Shown in pieces: positions 55,986-62,604 of a stretch of DNA of 64,000 bases (the stretch's first letter is position 1; each line of letters begins with the position of its first letter). The stretch comes from Dictyostelium discoideum. Its lineage: Eukaryota. The stretch lies in assembly GCA_000004695.1 (NCBI GenBank), contig CM000155.2, positions 2,848,001 through 2,912,000 of the forward strand, given 5' to 3'. The position numbers were made by a program, and so were the translations under genes. The notes under the pieces were generated by a model, which saw only the letters and a program-made list of their open reading frames with translations, searched no databases and had not been told where the DNA came from.

Positions 55986-56129
55986 ATTTAATATTAATTT
56001 ATATACACTTTATAAAGAAAATAAAAAATGTTAATCCCAAAAGATGATAAACTCGTTGCCGAGAAAATGATAAATATAGCAAAAAAACTATGGTTTATTG
56101 GTTTCTTTTTCTTACCATGGGTTTGGTTA

Positions 56130-56229
56130 NNNNNNNNNNNNNNNNNNNNNNNNNNNNNNNNNNNNNNNNNNNNNNNNNNNNNNNNNNNNNNNNNNNNNNN
56201 NNNNNNNNNNNNNNNNNNNNNNNNNNNNN
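56130..56229. other. Assembly gap (100 N)
   Basis: Run of n immediately upstream of the degenerate second copy of the duplicated segment. Confidence 0.95.
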
Positions 56230-56236
56230 TTTGTTT

Positions 56237-56950
56237 TTATATATTATGTATTCTAATTACGGACTCATCAACATACTCTTTTGTCACTAACAGATAAAGT
56301 TTCGTTTGATTATCTTNTGGTGAAAACATCAGCATCAGATTGTAATTGATCAGCTCTTTTATAACCCGTTTTGTTTTTGAGTGATTGAGATGTGATTCCA
56401 CCATTATTGGAAGTTGTGACAGCTTCATGTGTTGATCAAGCATGGGTGGTAGAGAGCTCGATAGCTTTTTCAACTAGGTCATCTGATGATTTTCATTTGG
56501 TTATTTCAATATCCCTGTGCAATTAATTTTTACTTGTCTCCGCCTCTCTAAATTCAACATTTACTTTGTACTTCAAATCATTTTTATCAATAGTAACTTC
56601 GTTAAATAATACACCAAATTCATCACTTTGATTGAATTCAACATCTTTAAATTCCAAAAAAGCGATATCTTCGGGTGGATACTTTTTATTAGATTTATTG
56701 TTTTTACTGTAGATCATTTTTTGGAACGAAAACTTTAAAAAAATAAAAAAATAAAAAAAAAATACTTTTTAATTTTTTTAATTTTTTTTTTTATATTTTT
56801 TTTTTTTATATTTTTTTTTTTTAAATTTTTTTTTTTAATTTTTTTTTATTTTATTTTTTAAAGTTTCGAACAATTATATATAAAAAAAAAAAAAGATATC
56901 CCTTCGGTTAATTATAGTAACAATACAGACAACAAGAATAATTATAAAAT
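56237..56950 (-). repeat. Second, degenerate copy of the 25447-26160 segment (ORF1 intact, ORF2 with several stops, identical 3' tail)
   Basis: 56523..56717 encodes the identical 64-aa ORF1. 56237..56500 is a diverged, stop-containing version of ORF2. 56717..56950 repeats the AT-rich tail ending gatatcccttcggttaattatagtaacaatacagacaacaagaataattataaaat. Confidence 0.7.
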
Positions 56951-57129
56951 AAAAAAAAAAAAAAAAAAATCTTTTTTTATCTTTTTATTTTTATTTCTTA
57001 TTTATTTTTATTTTTTTATTTTTTATTTTTTTTTTAATTATTTTAATCCCGTGAGTTTTTTTTTATTATTATTTTTAATTCTTTTATATTTGAGATGATT
57101 ATTATTAATTAAATGACTTTGAGTTTTTT

Positions 57130-57312
57130 TTTTTATTTTTCTATGCCCAAAATTACCATATTAATTTCGGCAGCCATATTAATTTCAGCCTAAAATAGTT
57201 GGTCTGTGCATGCCAAAATTAATATGGCTGCTGAAATTAATATGGTAATTCTAGCAGACATAAGTCCCATGCCAAAATTATCATATTAATTTCAGCAGCC
57301 ATATTAATTTTG
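57130..57312. mobile_element. Foldback-type repeat, second locus of the 45-bp unit (direct/inverted arrangement), thug-like
   Basis: cccaaaattaccatattaatttcggcagccatattaatttcagcc ... ccaaaattaatatggctgctgaaattaatatggtaatt (inverted) ... ccaaaattatcatattaatttcagcagccatattaattttggcatggg. Same unit as at 24951-25108. Confidence 0.45.
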
Positions 57313-57540
57313 GCATGGGACAAATATGAATTAAAAAGAAAACAAACTTTAGAACTAAAAGAATTAAAAAGTGAATGTGGGGAAGGCCCGGTATTATCTA
57401 AAGAAGAATCAAAAGAATTGGATGATTTAGAAAGAAAATATAAACGTGTTGGAAATTAAAAAATAAAAAAAGGTAAAAAAAAAGTAGATAAAAATAAAGA
57501 TATTAAATTATAATGTGTTTATCCACGCTCGAGGAAGGAT

Positions 57541-59243
57541 TTATAATCCAACTCTTTCTAATCTATCATATTCATTTTGTAATAAACCAATTTCTTTTTT
57601 TATTTCATATTGTCTTTCTTTTGTTGTCACTGGTTTGAAATTAATTATTTCATCAGTATCTGACAACCAATTTTTAGATTTGAATAATTCATATAAATCA
57701 GAATGTGTCATCATTAAACGCAATACACCACCCGAACCATATGGTTCAATTTTAATTCCAAAAGTTTTCAATGTGGTTTTTAATTCAGCTTCTTTAATTG
57801 TATGTTTATTATCTCTGTTCATTTCCTGATGATATTTAAATTCATTTACAAAATCAGTGAATTTAATTTTGTTCAAATCTTTACCTTGTAAAATGTAATT
57901 TTTTTTAATATATTTCATATTTGCCGGTAATTGATCACTTTTCATCCCAATAAATGTTTCAGATTGTGGTATAACATCTTCATTAAATTTAGATTTATCA
58001 CTATTTTTCAATTTCCAATAAAATGATTCAGCTACATTTGGATCGTCCATATATTTACCTAACTTTTCAAAATAATCTTTATTTCCTTTGAATTCAGATG
58101 ATAAATCAAATATAGCAAAACGTCTTTATACTGATGCGCCTATCTTTATATTATCAGAATTACAAGTGAAAATCATATTCATATAATTAGGTACATTTAC
58201 TTTATCATTTTGATTTCTTTTACGAATGGTAATTAATAGTTCAGTAATAATATATTTAATACCCTCACCAACATTATTCCAATCCTTTACAATTGGTTCA
58301 TCAACCACCATTAATAGCTTTTTCTCAATAATATCATTCCATCCACCAAAAAGTCACAATTATTTACTGATGCGGATATATTATAACCTAAAATCTTTGT
58401 AATAAAGAAATTTGTAAAAATACCTTTTCCAATACCACCCATAAATAATCTCCACATTAATGCAGTCCTAAGTTTACGTCCTTGACTACATGCTAACCAA
58501 TTAATTAGATATGAATATTGTTCTTCATTAAGAGAACAAATTGCAACCTTCAAATGGTTCATAATCACATCAACACCCTCCAGTGTCGTGGTGCTGACCC
58601 CGTTTGGTTCGCTATCATAGAACCAACCTGCAAATTCATTAACACATAAACTACAATCATCTCGTTTAAAAATTCTATCTTTATCTGGAACCCAAGTTGG
58701 TGTACAATGATTTGGTTCATACTCCATAAACCATTGGTAAACATCAAAATTTGGATAACCATCAATTTTGATTATTCTTCTTCTAAAATATGTTTTCTCT
58801 GCATCTGAATACGATAAATCTTTTATTTGTTTATCACCTGGCACCCAAAATCTAAATATTGGTGAACCACCTATTTTAATAAAGTATGTTGATATATACT
58901 TTTTTATATTCTCAACTTCGTCAAATGTTTTTGCAGTTACACACATAATATTTAATGTGTTTACATCAAATGCTTGTTTTGACGAACAAAATAAATGTGG
59001 GTATGATTGATTAAATAATGACTTGTTCACTTCTACTGGTTCTTGATTTAGCGGGCAAGTTAACTTGGCTACTAAATCTTCTTGCACTAAATCTTCTTCT
59101 TCTAAATCTTTTTGCTCCACTAAATCGTTTTCCAATTTATCAACAAGCTCTCTCCAACTCTCATCTGAATCTCTTCTATTTTTATCTGTATGTCCAAGTT
59201 CTTTTGCTCTTTCAATAAGTTGTTGTTTATTAGGTTTTACCAT
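57541..59243 (-). pseudogene. D5-type primase-helicase (superfamily 3 helicase) pseudogene: one frameshift and one in-frame stop
   Basis: Piece 1, 58311..59243: ...EEQYSYLINWLACSQGRKLRTALMWRLFMGGIGKGIFTNFFITKILGYNISASVNNCDFL matches the D5_N / Walker A neighbourhood (W..G......f...G.G.NGKS.F..l...lG.Y), with a degenerate P-loop. Piece 2, 58126..58311, in another frame: MVVDEP (Walker B hhhhDE) ...IKYIITELLITIRKRNQNDKVNVPNYMNMIFTCNSDNIKIGASV matches the SF3 K.LTGGD.I..R..y.....F.P.f.l.F.tN..P motif C. A TAA follows in frame, then RRFAIFDLSSEF (the conserved ..RR...i.F block) continuing as piece 3, 57541..58050. The order and spacing of the motifs are canonical for NCLDV/virophage/polinton-like-virus D5 helicases. 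Confidence 0.6.
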
Positions 59244-59259
59244 TTTATATAACTATATA

Positions 59260-59703
59260 TTATGTAAAGTTTAAAATAAAAAATAGAGAAAAAAATAGAA
59301 AAAAATATCTTTGTTGGTTTTTTATAACATTAATTTCAAGTCTTTCATAGTGTTTTCTATCAATAAAAACATTTTCAACTTTATATTCTGGTATCTCATC
59401 ATTGAACGCCAATAAAATATAATCATAATTATATAAATTTATTTCACTACCATCTGTCATATTATAAATTGATAGAGATTGATGTTTTTTGATTTTATCT
59501 AAATATATTTTTAATGATACTATAATTCTTACATCTCCGCTAATTATTGTATAATATTGATATGGTCTATTTTGATAATTCATTTTTATATATCGGTATA
59601 TTATGTAAAGTTTAATGTAAATGTGATGTAAAAAGTTGTGTAAAAAATTTTGATTTTTTTTTTCAAAATCTTTTGATTTTTTATTATTTTTATATTTTTT
59701 CAA
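59260..59703 (-). CDS. Hypothetical 147-aa ORF adjacent to the D5-like pseudogene
   Basis: ORF with moderate complexity (…YQNRPYQYYTIISGDVRIIVSLKIYLDKIKKHQSLSIYNMTDGSEINLYNYDYILLAFNDEIPEYKVENVFIDRKHYERLEINVIKNQQRYF). No homology recognised. Confidence 0.3.
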   Translation of the reverse strand: MKKYKNNKKSKDFEKKNQNFLHNFLHHIYIKLYIIYRYIKMNYQNRPYQYYTIISGDVRIIVSLKIYLDKIKKHQSLSIYNMTDGSEINLYNYDYILLAFNDEIPEYKVENVFIDRKHYERLEINVIKNQQRYFFLFFSLFFILNFT

Positions 59704-59781
59704 AATTTAAACTACATATACGGTAGTTTTTTTTGATTGTATATAAAATGTCAGAAAAAAGTATAACAGATTTAGTTACAA

Positions 59782-60213
59782 TTGCAAAAGAAACAAAAGT
59801 ATTATCTGTTTGTTCCAGTATCTCTAGCTGCTTTTGTAAACCAAAATATCAAAAAAGAAAGAAAATTAAAAAAATTCGAAAGTAGAGACTTTTTTGCCGA
59901 TATCAAGGATCAATTAGATGGACTGGAGTGCTCCTTATTTAACACCATCAACCTTTTTTTTAGTCCAATTGAAGGTTTTGACCAACTTTCCGACTTATTA
60001 GTAAAAGCCATGTTCAAAGATGAAATTGCTCCATTTGGAAATGCAACCAATGTTATTAAAGCTTTTTGTAAAAGAGTCTCTAACTATGGAGAATTAATTC
60101 ATAATTTTATAAGATGTTATGACAAAGATGATTCATATAATATTTTAGAAAATTATGAAGCTTTAAAAATATCCCTAAACAAACTTTTGTTGTTTGTTGA
60201 AACACAAATTTAA
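59782..60213 (+). CDS. Hypothetical 143-aa ORF, divergent from 59260..59703, abutting the GC-rich palindrome
   Basis: MQKKQKYYLFVPVSLAAFVNQNIKKERKLKKFESRDFFADIKDQLDGLECSLFNTINLFFSPIEGFDQLSDLLVKAMFKDEIAPFGNATNVIKAFCKRVSNYGELIHNFIRCYDKDDSYNILENYEALKISLNKLLLFVETQI. Normal complexity, no homology recognised. Confidence 0.3.
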   Translation: MQKKQKYYLFVPVSLAAFVNQNIKKERKLKKFESRDFFADIKDQLDGLECSLFNTINLFFSPIEGFDQLSDLLVKAMFKDEIAPFGNATNVIKAFCKRVSNYGELIHNFIRCYDKDDSYNILENYEALKISLNKLLLFVETQI

Positions 60214-60239
60214 TAACAATATAAAAATAAAAACAATCA

Positions 60240-60800
60240 CCTCCGCAAATTCGCAGTTTTTTGCGGGTTTTAATTTTATCACAACAACAATAATTATTTA
60301 TTTATTTTTTCGCGTGTAGAAAAGTAGAGAGTGTAGAGTGATTTCTGACGAACTAGTACGGATTTCACAAATACACAAAAATAGTGCACGTCATATAAAA
60401 TCAATAGAGAACCCCTATAACTCCTCTTACGTTATGCACGATATTGTGTTTGTGTAATTCTGTGCGCGTGTATTAAAATCAAGAGGGATTGTTAGTACGT
60501 TATCATTATACATGACGTACACAGTTTGCACTTTTTTTTATGTTTTCGTACTTTTTTTTACTACTCACTCTACAACTCTATTTTTCTACATATATATAAA
60601 AAATTAAAAATAATATTAATATTACATGAATATATGTATAGAGTAATATATAGATAATAAAAATATGGAATATAGTTTAGAGTGATTTTAGGTTATAGGA
60701 GCATAGCCGAAGGCTAATGCGATAGGGAAGCAGCAAAGCGTTCCCTCACACCTTCCCTCACACCTTACCATTTTATGACCTTCCAGAATATAGTAATTTT
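60240..60800. repeat. GC-enriched region containing nested inverted repeats (about 300 bp imperfect palindrome) and a small perfect hairpin
   Basis: Hairpin CCGCAAA-ttcgcagttt-TTTGCGG at 60244-60267. TAGAGAGTGTAGAGTGAT (about 60322) pairs with ACTCACTCTACAACTCTA (about 60562). GTGCACGTCATATAA (about 60387) pairs with TTATACATGACGTACAC (about 60513). A direct repeat CCTTCCCTCACACCTT x2 lies at 60745-60775. Composition is clearly less AT-rich than the surroundings. Confidence 0.5.
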
Positions 60801-61386
60801 CAAGGTACTATTGATAAAAAAAAAAAAGCTAAATTATTTTAAATTTGTTTTCTTTTCACCAATGATAAATCTAATGATGGATTCACAATCATTTCGATAT
60901 AAAACAAATAAATTATTTATTGTTTTTTTTTGTAAGGTTGTTAAATTATAATTTTTCTTTTTCTTCTTATTATTATGTTTATTATTTAATAAATTATTAA
61001 TACTAATATCTAAAAATGTTATTTATTTATTAATTAATTAATTAAGTACATACTATTGGATGTTTTATACATGCCATAAACCAACCTATCAAGAATATGT
61101 TGAAAGTTTACAATCAATAATTTAAAATTGTTATAATATATATTAATAATTAGGGAAATTGAAGAGAATAAAATTTACATCCTAATCCTCCATTTCCCCA
61201 AAAATTTTCAAAAATAAATAAATAATTTAAAATATTAATACAAATTGTATGTGTATATTAAATAATAATAGATTAAAAAAAAAAAAAAAAAAAAAAAAAT
61301 TAAATTAAATTAAATTAGAATCAAAATTTCCTTCAAACATAATTCATGCTCTTCTATTCCTGTAAAAAAAAAAATTAAAATTAAAA

Positions 61387-61566
61387 ATGTTGGGGTGTGA
61401 AATTTTAAAAATATGTTTGTTTGAAACAAAAAATAAAAAAAAAAATGGTGTAGATCGCCAAATTAAAAGCCAAGATTGTTCAAATATTTCCAATGTATTG
61501 ATGGATGCAACAAAGAATTGGAAAGAAATGCCAGAAAGTTGGAAAAATAAATTAAATTTTTATTAG
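61387..61566 (+). CDS. Paralogue (possibly degenerate) of the small peptide gene at 17868-18077
   Basis: 59-aa ORF MLGCEILKICLFETKNKKKNGVDRQIKSQDCSNISNVLMDATKNWKEMPESWKNKLNFY. Its core matches KIKSQDCSEVFNAFMDAKKNWKEMPES, but it has no signal peptide. Confidence 0.25.
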   Translation: MLGCEILKICLFETKNKKKNGVDRQIKSQDCSNISNVLMDATKNWKEMPESWKNKLNFY

Positions 61567-61835
61567 TAATTTTTTAGTTTTGTTGCAAATTTTAATAATC
61601 AACAAAATAATAATAACTAGTAATAATAAAAAAACATAAAAAAAAAAAATATTTTTTTGAATCCAAACTTTACAACTTTAAAAAAAAAAAACTAAAACTA
61701 AAAAAGGTAGAGTGCACTTGTTAGGTTTGATGCTAATTATTTATTGATTTTTAATATTATTTTTTTTTTTTTTTATTTCTGGCAAACTTAATATGGAATA
61801 TCAGTTACAACCTGTGCAATATGAAAGCACTTGGT

Positions 61836-61950
61836 CTATACATAGAATAGGAATGTTGTTTTTGTAAAACTCTTCACCTGTATTACCATGCAGGCAAAAA
61901 GTTCCCCTTCACTTAGAAAAGCGTTGAAAAGAATGGCAGCAAAGATTGCA
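61836..61950 (-). pseudogene. Isolated antisense fragment of an ABCG/PDR-type transporter TMD exon (relic)
   Basis: The minus strand encodes [34 protein letters not shown] followed by a GTAATA donor. This is the conserved PDR/ABCG TMD block (..LFSRGGALFFAILFNAFSSLLEIF..). No upstream acceptor or exons; it lies 1.3 kb from a real abcG gene on the other strand. Confidence 0.4.
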
Positions 61951-62604
61951 CCACCTCTAGTGAAAAGACCTGATAGATTGGTTTGCATATTATAAATTAT
62001 TTTTTTTTTTTTTAAATGCAACAAAATAAACAATCAATCATTTGAACAATTATATTTTTAGAGAAAATGAGTTGGGTCATTTATAGATTAAAAAAAAAAA
62101 AAAATCAAAAAAATTGATTTAATTAAATTGTTTTATTTTTTATTTTTTCATTTTTAAATTTTATAAATTTCTAATATTTGTTTATGTGTTTTATTGTTTT
62201 TTTTTTAAAAAAATTGAAAATAGATAGGTAAAATAAAAAATTAAAATTAAATGGTTATTGCTTTTATTTATTTTATTATTTTAAATCAAATAAAATAAGT
62301 AATTAAATTTTGGTTTTTATTTTTTTTTTTATTTAAAAATTCAAATTTGACAATCAAATCAAATTTTTGGTTTTTTTTTTTAATATCTATTTTTTTATTT
62401 AAAATATATTAACTTTTCTTTTGTTTCTCAAAAAAATTTATTAAAAAAAAATAAAGTAAAATAAAATAAAAATCTGAATTTAAAATAAAGACTTTTTCGA
62501 ATGGGACTATTAAAAAAAAAAAATAAAAAAATAAAACTGTTATTATTTGAAAAAAAAATGGATTTCGTAAAAAATAAAAAGACGATAAAATAGATATTTT
62601 GGAG

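Follow-up and report, generated by a model that had tools for sequence, protein, structure and literature searches.

Here we describe a block of about 3.5 kb in the genome of Dictyostelium discoideum that is probably the decayed remains of an integrated mavirus/Polinton-like element, one of those in which a family B DNA polymerase with protein priming (pPolB) occurs together with an rve integrase and a DUF5906 helicase. The block lies on chromosome 6, in a very AT-rich stretch of 64,000 nucleotides (nt; NCBI GenBank assembly GCA_000004695.1, contig CM000155.2, positions 2,848,001 to 2,912,000 of the forward strand) that was analysed as a whole and is hereafter called the window; coordinates are window positions. 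The core of the relic spans about 57330-60800 and possibly begins just left of the insertion point of a separate transposon, in sequence now found at 24733-24952. An initial sequence-only reading had proposed a virus-like island of 4.7 kb (56130-60800) with five features, one of which has turned out to be an assembly artefact and another the end of an unrelated transposon. The remnant of an endogenous virus-like element nevertheless remains the best interpretation, because the nearest relatives of its helicase lie in small elements that carry both pPolB and an rve integrase.

The block is dominated by a pseudogene for a superfamily 3 (SF3) helicase of the D5/NrS-1 type (57541-59243, minus strand), which was identified by its reading frames, a Pfam DUF5906 match (3.3e-13), its relatives, tblastn and an AlphaFold2 (AF2) model, and which consists of a collar, a DUF5906 AAA+ core and a C-terminal domain. 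Reading starts at the ATG at 59243 (MVKPNK...) and continues in frame 0 up to ...SASVNNCDF; past a -1 shift the frame is FGGWNDIIEKKLLMVVDEP...IKIGASV, followed by a TAA, then by RRFAIFD...GL and a stop at 57541. The frameshift is located in a run of five T on the coding strand (A5 on the plus strand) at 58348-58352, where six T would give ...CDFFGGWND..., and the family-invariant Asn303 is found just downstream of it in the shifted frame. The in-frame TAA (58126-58128) occupies a conserved D/E/Q position directly preceding the RR arginine finger. With these two lesions the helicase has no intact open reading frame (ORF). Insertion of one T and read-through of the TAA give a repaired protein of 567 aa.

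A second and independent assembly of D. discoideum, GCA_054883475.1 (locus tag ACTFIT_; L010), was reached via the homologue of an orphan ORF on the plus strand that is described below. It is 100% identical to the window over 56969-61400 and contains both lesions in identical form, hence neither lesion is a sequencing error. The repaired helicase keeps 46 of the 53 family positions that are at least 80% conserved, including 23 of the 29 that lie downstream of the frameshift. Past the TAA 194 codons are open, which was found in none of 20000 shuffles, and the remaining two frames hold 17 and 36 stops. The gene is therefore a pseudogene, as the sequence-only reading had it, and one that decayed recently.

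Among database entries only one closely matches the candidate protein, namely the hypothetical protein DDB_G0293464 of strain AX4, which is the same locus; this is the only annotation, and the gene is not filed as one of a transposon, in agreement with what had been supposed. Literature searches on DDB_G0293464 found nothing. The gene model (P0001, 443 aa, with a precomputed PF19263 hit) joins a small upstream ORF to the helicase by an intron of about 75 nt, removes 52 nt around the frameshift and terminates at the in-frame TAA. It could be argued that the gene is functional, its lesions being either errors of sequencing or skipped by introns, given that two annotation pipelines arrived at coding models (443 aa and 615 aa) and that the 52-nt segment begins with GTAAAT and finishes with AG. 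We consider this hardly credible. Apart from the identity of the lesions in the second assembly, the skipped segment holds Asn303 as well as conserved flanking residues in the shifted frame, which makes the supposed intron an annotation workaround; and since the model ends at the TAA it loses the arginine finger and the C-terminal domain, both of which are conserved and in frame beyond that codon. DDB_G0293464 is, in other words, a stitched pseudogene, which matters to users of this region.

The identity of the helicase is clear from both sequence and fold. The repaired protein matches Pfam DUF5906 with 50.7 bits (cut-off 27.6) over residues 269-367, as well as the helicase part of a PHROG family named DNA primase (1e-9). 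DUF5906 represents the AAA+ SF3 helicase core of vaccinia D5 and the NrS-1 helicase (PMC9611036). The motifs occur in the canonical order that had been noted from the sequence, with Walker A, Walker B (VVDE, 315-316), motif C (N353/N362) and the RR finger (R374-R375), and in the family alignment the Walker B, motif C and RR columns are invariant or nearly so. In Walker A, the invariant G270, G272 and K273 are kept, yet the S/T position is a Gly, which results in GIGKG (repaired residues 268-274, window about 58440-58420, minus strand). The homologue from Synstelium polycarpum (P0002) carries GIGKG too, with GTGKS in the rest of the family. As judged from these sequences, this suggests that the ATPase was altered or lost in a dictyostelid-specific lineage.

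Structure modelling and the exhaustive homologue search used gene model P0001 rather than the repaired protein. The AF2 model of this product of the locus itself has a predicted local distance difference test score (pLDDT) of 80-97 over the helicase part, and a fold search performed with it identified NrS-1 (E 4e-8), then monkeypox virus (MPXV) E5 and vaccinia D5. Fold matches comprise NrS-1 CTR, vaccinia D5 323-785, MPXV E5, and the helicase modules of African swine fever virus (ASFV) C962R and SaPI5. The structural alignment of collar, AAA+ and C-terminal domain spans about 300-366 residues and shows the arrangement of NrS-1 CTR and D5 323-785. A PDB sequence search with the repaired protein returned no hits.

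The sequence-only reading had called the gene a primase-helicase, and this has to be corrected. The Pfam scan of the repaired protein shows no archaeo-eukaryotic primase (AEP)/PrimPol or other primase family at E <= 1. Family members open directly with the collar domain, to which the D. discoideum protein adds an 87-residue charged low-complexity N-terminal extension. A primase domain would have been detected if present, since the same method found one in the more distant relative P0052 (AEP_C962R, 1e-35). The locus hence encodes a D5-type SF3 helicase and not a primase-helicase. Of the two domains that had been expected upon repair of the translation, the SF3 helicase domain was found in the form of DUF5906; D5_N was not, nor was Pox_D5, though the region that precedes the AAA+ core aligns structurally with the NrS-1/D5 collar.

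The exhaustive HMMER search with P0001 yielded 213 relatives at E <= 1e-3, 43 of which at E <= 1e-10. The repaired protein is collinear with family members of 500-570 aa over residues about 88-545. Its best hit is EP01133_P005710 of S. polycarpum (EukProt, E 2e-24, 36% identity), which is also its sister in a neighbour-joining (NJ) tree that is rough and has no support values. One further, more distant relative comes from the fungus Rhizophagus irregularis, and the remaining relatives for which sources were looked up (30 in all) are metagenome proteins; none of the 30 has a Dictyostelium plasmid record as its source. In a collection of 15 billion proteins the other dictyostelid proteomes yielded no reported homologue, a scan of IMG/VR with the single protein identified no relatives, and a profile search of a word-indexed database added only two proteins.

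Genomic context was readable for six close relatives, on tightly packed contigs of 6-21 kb. In five of these contexts the helicase comes first, and after it lie, in this order, an rve integrase that is convergent with it and often has a chromodomain, a small ORF, and a pPolB of about 600 aa; DNA_pol_B_2 exceeds the Pfam cut-off on both contigs that were rescanned (L001 and L003). An A32-type packaging ATPase stands out in L011, with faint matches in L008 and L012. Capsid-sized candidate ORFs gave no Pfam or PDB sequence hits, and with no capsid gene detected the viral status of these contigs rests on pPolB, integrase and A32 ATPase. The elements also encode an F-box protein, a D12-class DNA methyltransferase and a Bro-N domain protein (L001 7218-7973, minus strand; L001 64-861 and L011 564-1529, plus strand), accessory genes of a sort typically met in virus-like elements of eukaryotes.

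By comparison of gene order, the layout of the relatives can be classified as mavirus/Polinton-type. In mavirus the order is helicase (MV01), integrase (MV02) and pPolB (MV03), with MV01 being an S3H helicase. Mavirus-related elements based on pPolB (pMVRE) were defined in a survey of 2026, which finds DUF5906 to be specific to their group 1, where the maviruses belong, and reports mavirus-related elements from 14 of 56 (25%) Amoebozoa genomes surveyed (PMC13215967). Polintons are known from other dictyostelids (PMC3671162). The suggestion that the D. discoideum locus stems from an undescribed kind of element is thus not supported, since DUF5906 elements related to mavirus have been reported from a quarter of those amoebozoan genomes.

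Every ORF of four relative contigs (L001, L003, L006 and L008) was compared with the complete window by tblastn. The helicase was matched and nothing else: matches run from 58994 to 57643, with a change from one frame to another at about 58353. Neither pPolB nor rve integrase gave a hit in the window, and the ORFs neighbouring the helicase had no Pfam match. Capsid, penton, A32 ATPase and protease were likewise not encountered, as no part of the window resembles any other ORF of the four contigs, including the A32-like ATPase of L008. Searching the flanks for termini, as had been advised, had a mixed outcome: inverted repeats that bracket 56230-61300 are low-complexity A/T only, and the only clear pair of terminal inverted repeats (TIRs) with target-site duplication (TSD) near the block is that of the separate transposon. 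A context of tRNA-targeted retrotransposons was also considered and rejected, as the window has no tRNA gene.

Two small divergent ORFs had been noted next to the helicase and both are present. The first (59263-59583, minus strand, 107 aa) is the immediate upstream neighbour of the helicase ORF. Homologues of it were not detected: it corresponds to residues 1-85 of P0001, and among the 150 relatives listed for P0001 none had its best match within these residues, which are modelled with a pLDDT below 45. The second (59749-60213, plus strand) is divergent from the first and requires either a frameshift, with MSEKS... in frame 0 and ...VPVSLAAF...ETQI in frame 1, or splicing of an 82-nt intron with 37% GC at 59881-59962 (model P0181). 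Apart from this locus in the other D. discoideum assembly, it has no homologue. A stem-loop with a T-rich tail (60247-60270, plus strand) is found right behind its stop codon; a scan for bacterial-type promoters and terminators gave counts equal to those of shuffles and was uninformative.

The three ORFs share an upstream motif of 19 nt. Copy 1 (59256-59274, minus strand; TTAAACTTTACATAATATA on the coding strand) and copy 2, an exact repeat (59597-59615, minus strand), are located 10-30 nt ahead of the ATG of the helicase and of the 107-aa ORF, respectively, and a degenerate copy 3, TTTAAACTACATATACGG (59706-59723, plus strand), precedes the ATG of the plus-strand ORF. At up to two mismatches the motif occurs nowhere else in the window, and it is absent from the loci of the relatives. 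It is a putative element promoter or leader. Because the motif is common to them, we infer that the three ORFs form a co-regulated cassette, the two orphan ORFs probably being element genes under the same type of promoter as the helicase.

The GC-enriched imperfect palindrome of about 300 bp that had been described from the sequence was also recovered (60297-60608), with outer arms TGTAGAAAAGTAGAG..TGTAGAGTGA plus complement and inner arms nested between them. Its GC content is 0.33-0.38, whereas the AT-rich DNA past 60800 has about 0.1-0.2, and its DNA fold has a z-score of -5.2. The TGTAGAGTGA motif occurs three times, the third copy being TTTAGAGTGA at 60676-60685. The palindrome may be an origin or a terminal structure of the element. 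Like the small ORFs, it has no homologues that our searches could find. Beside it, at 60700-60790, is a stretch with a GC content of 0.45 that contains a perfect tandem 12-mer, TTCCCTCACACC x2 (60741-60764); its hairpin is modest, with a z of -1.9 for the RNA fold, and there is no Rfam match.

Combined, this can be accommodated as follows. An element of the mavirus-related Polinton-like class, equipped with pPolB, rve integrase and DUF5906 helicase, would have integrated into the D. discoideum genome. The intact helicase, which would never have had a primase domain, is predicted to have formed a hexameric ring of N-terminal collar, AAA+ motor and C-terminal domain that unwound element DNA for the element's polymerase. 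Polymerase, integrase, capsid and packaging genes would since have been deleted, such that the replicative helicase gene, the two small orphan ORFs and the imperfect palindrome are what survived. In the sequenced laboratory lineage the helicase is dead due to the loss of one nt in the T-run and the nonsense codon beside the arginine finger. The foldback transposon of 1.56 kb would have inserted later, beside or into the relic.

Several observations weigh against this scenario. The window holds no remnant of pPolB, integrase, capsid, ATPase or protease genes and no bracketing TIRs, so the arrival of a whole element is deduced from relatives with no more than about 30% identity. The top viral fold match belongs to Satyrvirus, a giant-virus metagenome bin (E 4.3e-43), with the mavirus helicase in 50th place. 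The composition of the helicase is host-like, with a GC content at third codon positions (GC3) of 0.16-0.20, against 0.08-0.21 in the window's other long ORFs. The non-canonical GIGKG of both dictyostelid proteins could, as far as the sequences tell, mark an older, host-resident, non-replicative gene. Finally, the small ORFs and the palindrome, for want of homologues, are tied to the element by adjacency and the shared motif.

Some of these points would be accounted for if the locus represents a lone, horizontally acquired helicase gene that resided in dictyostelid hosts, was perhaps exapted and became a pseudogene recently, with no complete element ever present here. That the window shows no sign of further element genes, and that the composition is host-like, would be expected, the D. 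discoideum and Synstelium proteins are sisters with the same unusual P-loop, and conserved positions are very well kept despite the lesions. We regard this as unlikely all the same. The two dictyostelid proteins are only about 36% identical and the protein collection reports no homologue from any other dictyostelid; since this distribution is patchy, repeated invasion by elements fits better than vertical descent. Furthermore, three neighbouring ORFs with a private upstream motif look like a cassette that was transferred together. A source among the giant viruses (Nucleocytoviricota) appears still less probable. It draws on the Satyrvirus protein, the top hit in BFVD, which is annotated as a highly derived D5-like helicase-primase and is 35% identical to P0004, and on the helicases of Iridovirus and Hyperionvirus that rank next. 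Giant-virus bins can, however, hold integrated or co-binned virophage-like elements. The six relatives nearest in sequence for which context is available are on contigs of 6-21 kb that are not giant-virus-sized, five of them with pPolB and integrase, and the family does not have the AEP primase domain of the D5 proteins of nucleocytoplasmic large DNA viruses (NCLDV).

The compact set of a helicase, two motif-bearing small ORFs and a 300-bp palindrome with three copies of TGTAGAGTGA, in a window with neither polymerase nor integrase, also brings to mind a small helicase-only replicon, either plasmid-like or in the style of papilloma- and polyomaviruses, with the SF3 helicase as initiator and the palindrome as origin. 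Such a replicon would be of a kind not yet described in dictyostelids. The nearest relatives do not reside in helicase-only replicons, palindrome and small ORFs lack homologues, and neither a second copy nor termini were identified, which together render this explanation very improbable. We therefore favour the relic of an integrated mavirus/Polinton-like element. A more specific version of it can tentatively be put forward, namely a dictyostelid-specific lineage of virophages or Polinton-like viruses with a sister copy in S. polycarpum, in which the small ORFs, the motif and the palindrome would serve as regulatory and origin sequences that are particular to this lineage.

The remaining parts of the proposed island have a different origin. 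The segment 56130-56968 consists of a 100-N gap (56130-56229) and a low-quality contig end, and is not biological. The sequence 56230-56968 is 95% identical to 25425-26162, which forms a 739-bp overlap of the contig ends that flank 26268-56129; a second 100-N gap is found at 26168-26267. All 37 differences lie in 56230-56517, within 290 nt of the gap, are densest beside it and thin out with distance; most are misread T and one N is among them. GCA_054883475.1 has a single copy that shows no differences from 25425-26162 and runs straight into 56969, and it does not have the 30-kb block 26268-56129 at this position. The supposed degenerate copy of a duplicated ORF pair is thus the low-quality end of a contig and not a degenerate paralogue. 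The left border, which had been placed between ordinary host genes, is an assembly gap rather than a biological junction. The AX4 reference appears to be mis-joined or redundant around both gaps, which affects users of the region. An ORF start, MLIPKDDKLVAEKMINIAKKLWFIGFFFLPWVWL (56028-56129, plus strand), is cut by the gap; it may resemble the N-terminus of the gamma-secretase subunit PEN-2.

The foldback repeat that had been assigned to the island does exist (57147-57317), and forms the right terminus of a separate transposon-like element of 1564 bp rather than of the helicase relic. The right end of this element, outside the relic, is at 56969-57322 and its left part at 24953-26162. Its termini are TGTCCCATGCC.../...GGCATGGGACA, with TIRs of about 300 nt; on either side stands a direct repeat of 6 bp, AATATG (24947-24952 and 57323-57328), and a small ORF pair lies within the element (25447-25911, minus strand). 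A hairpin in the terminal repeat (57219-57307) matches Rfam RF03716, mir-7131, on both strands with 96.1 and 94 bits (gathering score 74), and related foldback units are found at 24954-25105. Literature searches on mir-7131 found nothing. Multicopy D. discoideum microRNAs (miRNAs) have been reported in the thug-S DNA transposon (PMC6161686, PMC4894637). On the circumstantial basis of the TIRs, the TSD and this miRNA literature the 1564-bp element is probably a thug-S. The likeness to thug-S and mir-7131 hairpins concerns the foldback only, by the mir-7131 match in the terminal repeat and the 6-bp TSD.

With the transposon removed, a small coiled-coil ORF is continuous over the insertion site. 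Its 3' part (57329-57459, plus strand), convergent with the helicase, continues the frame of 24733-24952, giving about 116 codons with one in-frame TAA at 24889-24891. Further left lies a typical Ser/Thr-rich host gene. On the other side of the block, a fragment resembling an ABCG transporter (61793-62000, minus strand) has a similarity of about 90% to each of two segments within the abcG gene downstream (L010 15256-15456 and 18680-18877) and is, by its sequence, probably a small duplicated gene fragment.

No virus is known to us from D. discoideum. For this major model amoeba the relic constitutes modest yet concrete evidence of past contact with the virophage/Polinton-like world. The upstream motif and the sister gene of Synstelium are starting points for searching wild isolates. 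Should the dictyostelid-specific lineage be real, undiscovered dictyostelid viruses would be implied, possibly a giant virus together with a dependent small virus, and the 19-nt motif and the GIGKG helicase clade would provide a sequence handle for finding them.

Compared with known systems, the Dictyostelium helicase shares with those of NrS-1, D5, C962R and SaPI5 the DUF5906 match, the Walker A Lys, the Walker B DE, the motif C Asn, the RR finger and the fold; it differs in having no AEP/PrimPol domain, in GIGKG instead of GxGKS/T, and in its frameshift and stop. Synstelium EP01133_P005710 is alike in its P-loop, as best hit and as NJ sister, but is a fragment of 214 aa and far too divergent for the simple orthologue of a pseudogene. 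The MV01 helicase of mavirus is a distant structural match only (rank 50, E 3e-11). As for the pMVRE group 1/Polinton-like elements (PMC13215967), the nearest relatives (28-33% identity, E down to 8e-22) are helicases of such elements of 6-21 kb, whereas the Dictyostelium locus retains the helicase alone, with no pPolB, integrase, capsid genes or TIRs found. Mavirus-related and Polinton-like elements are already known as endogenous elements of Amoebozoa, and the D. discoideum relic is a new, fragmentary member of this kind.

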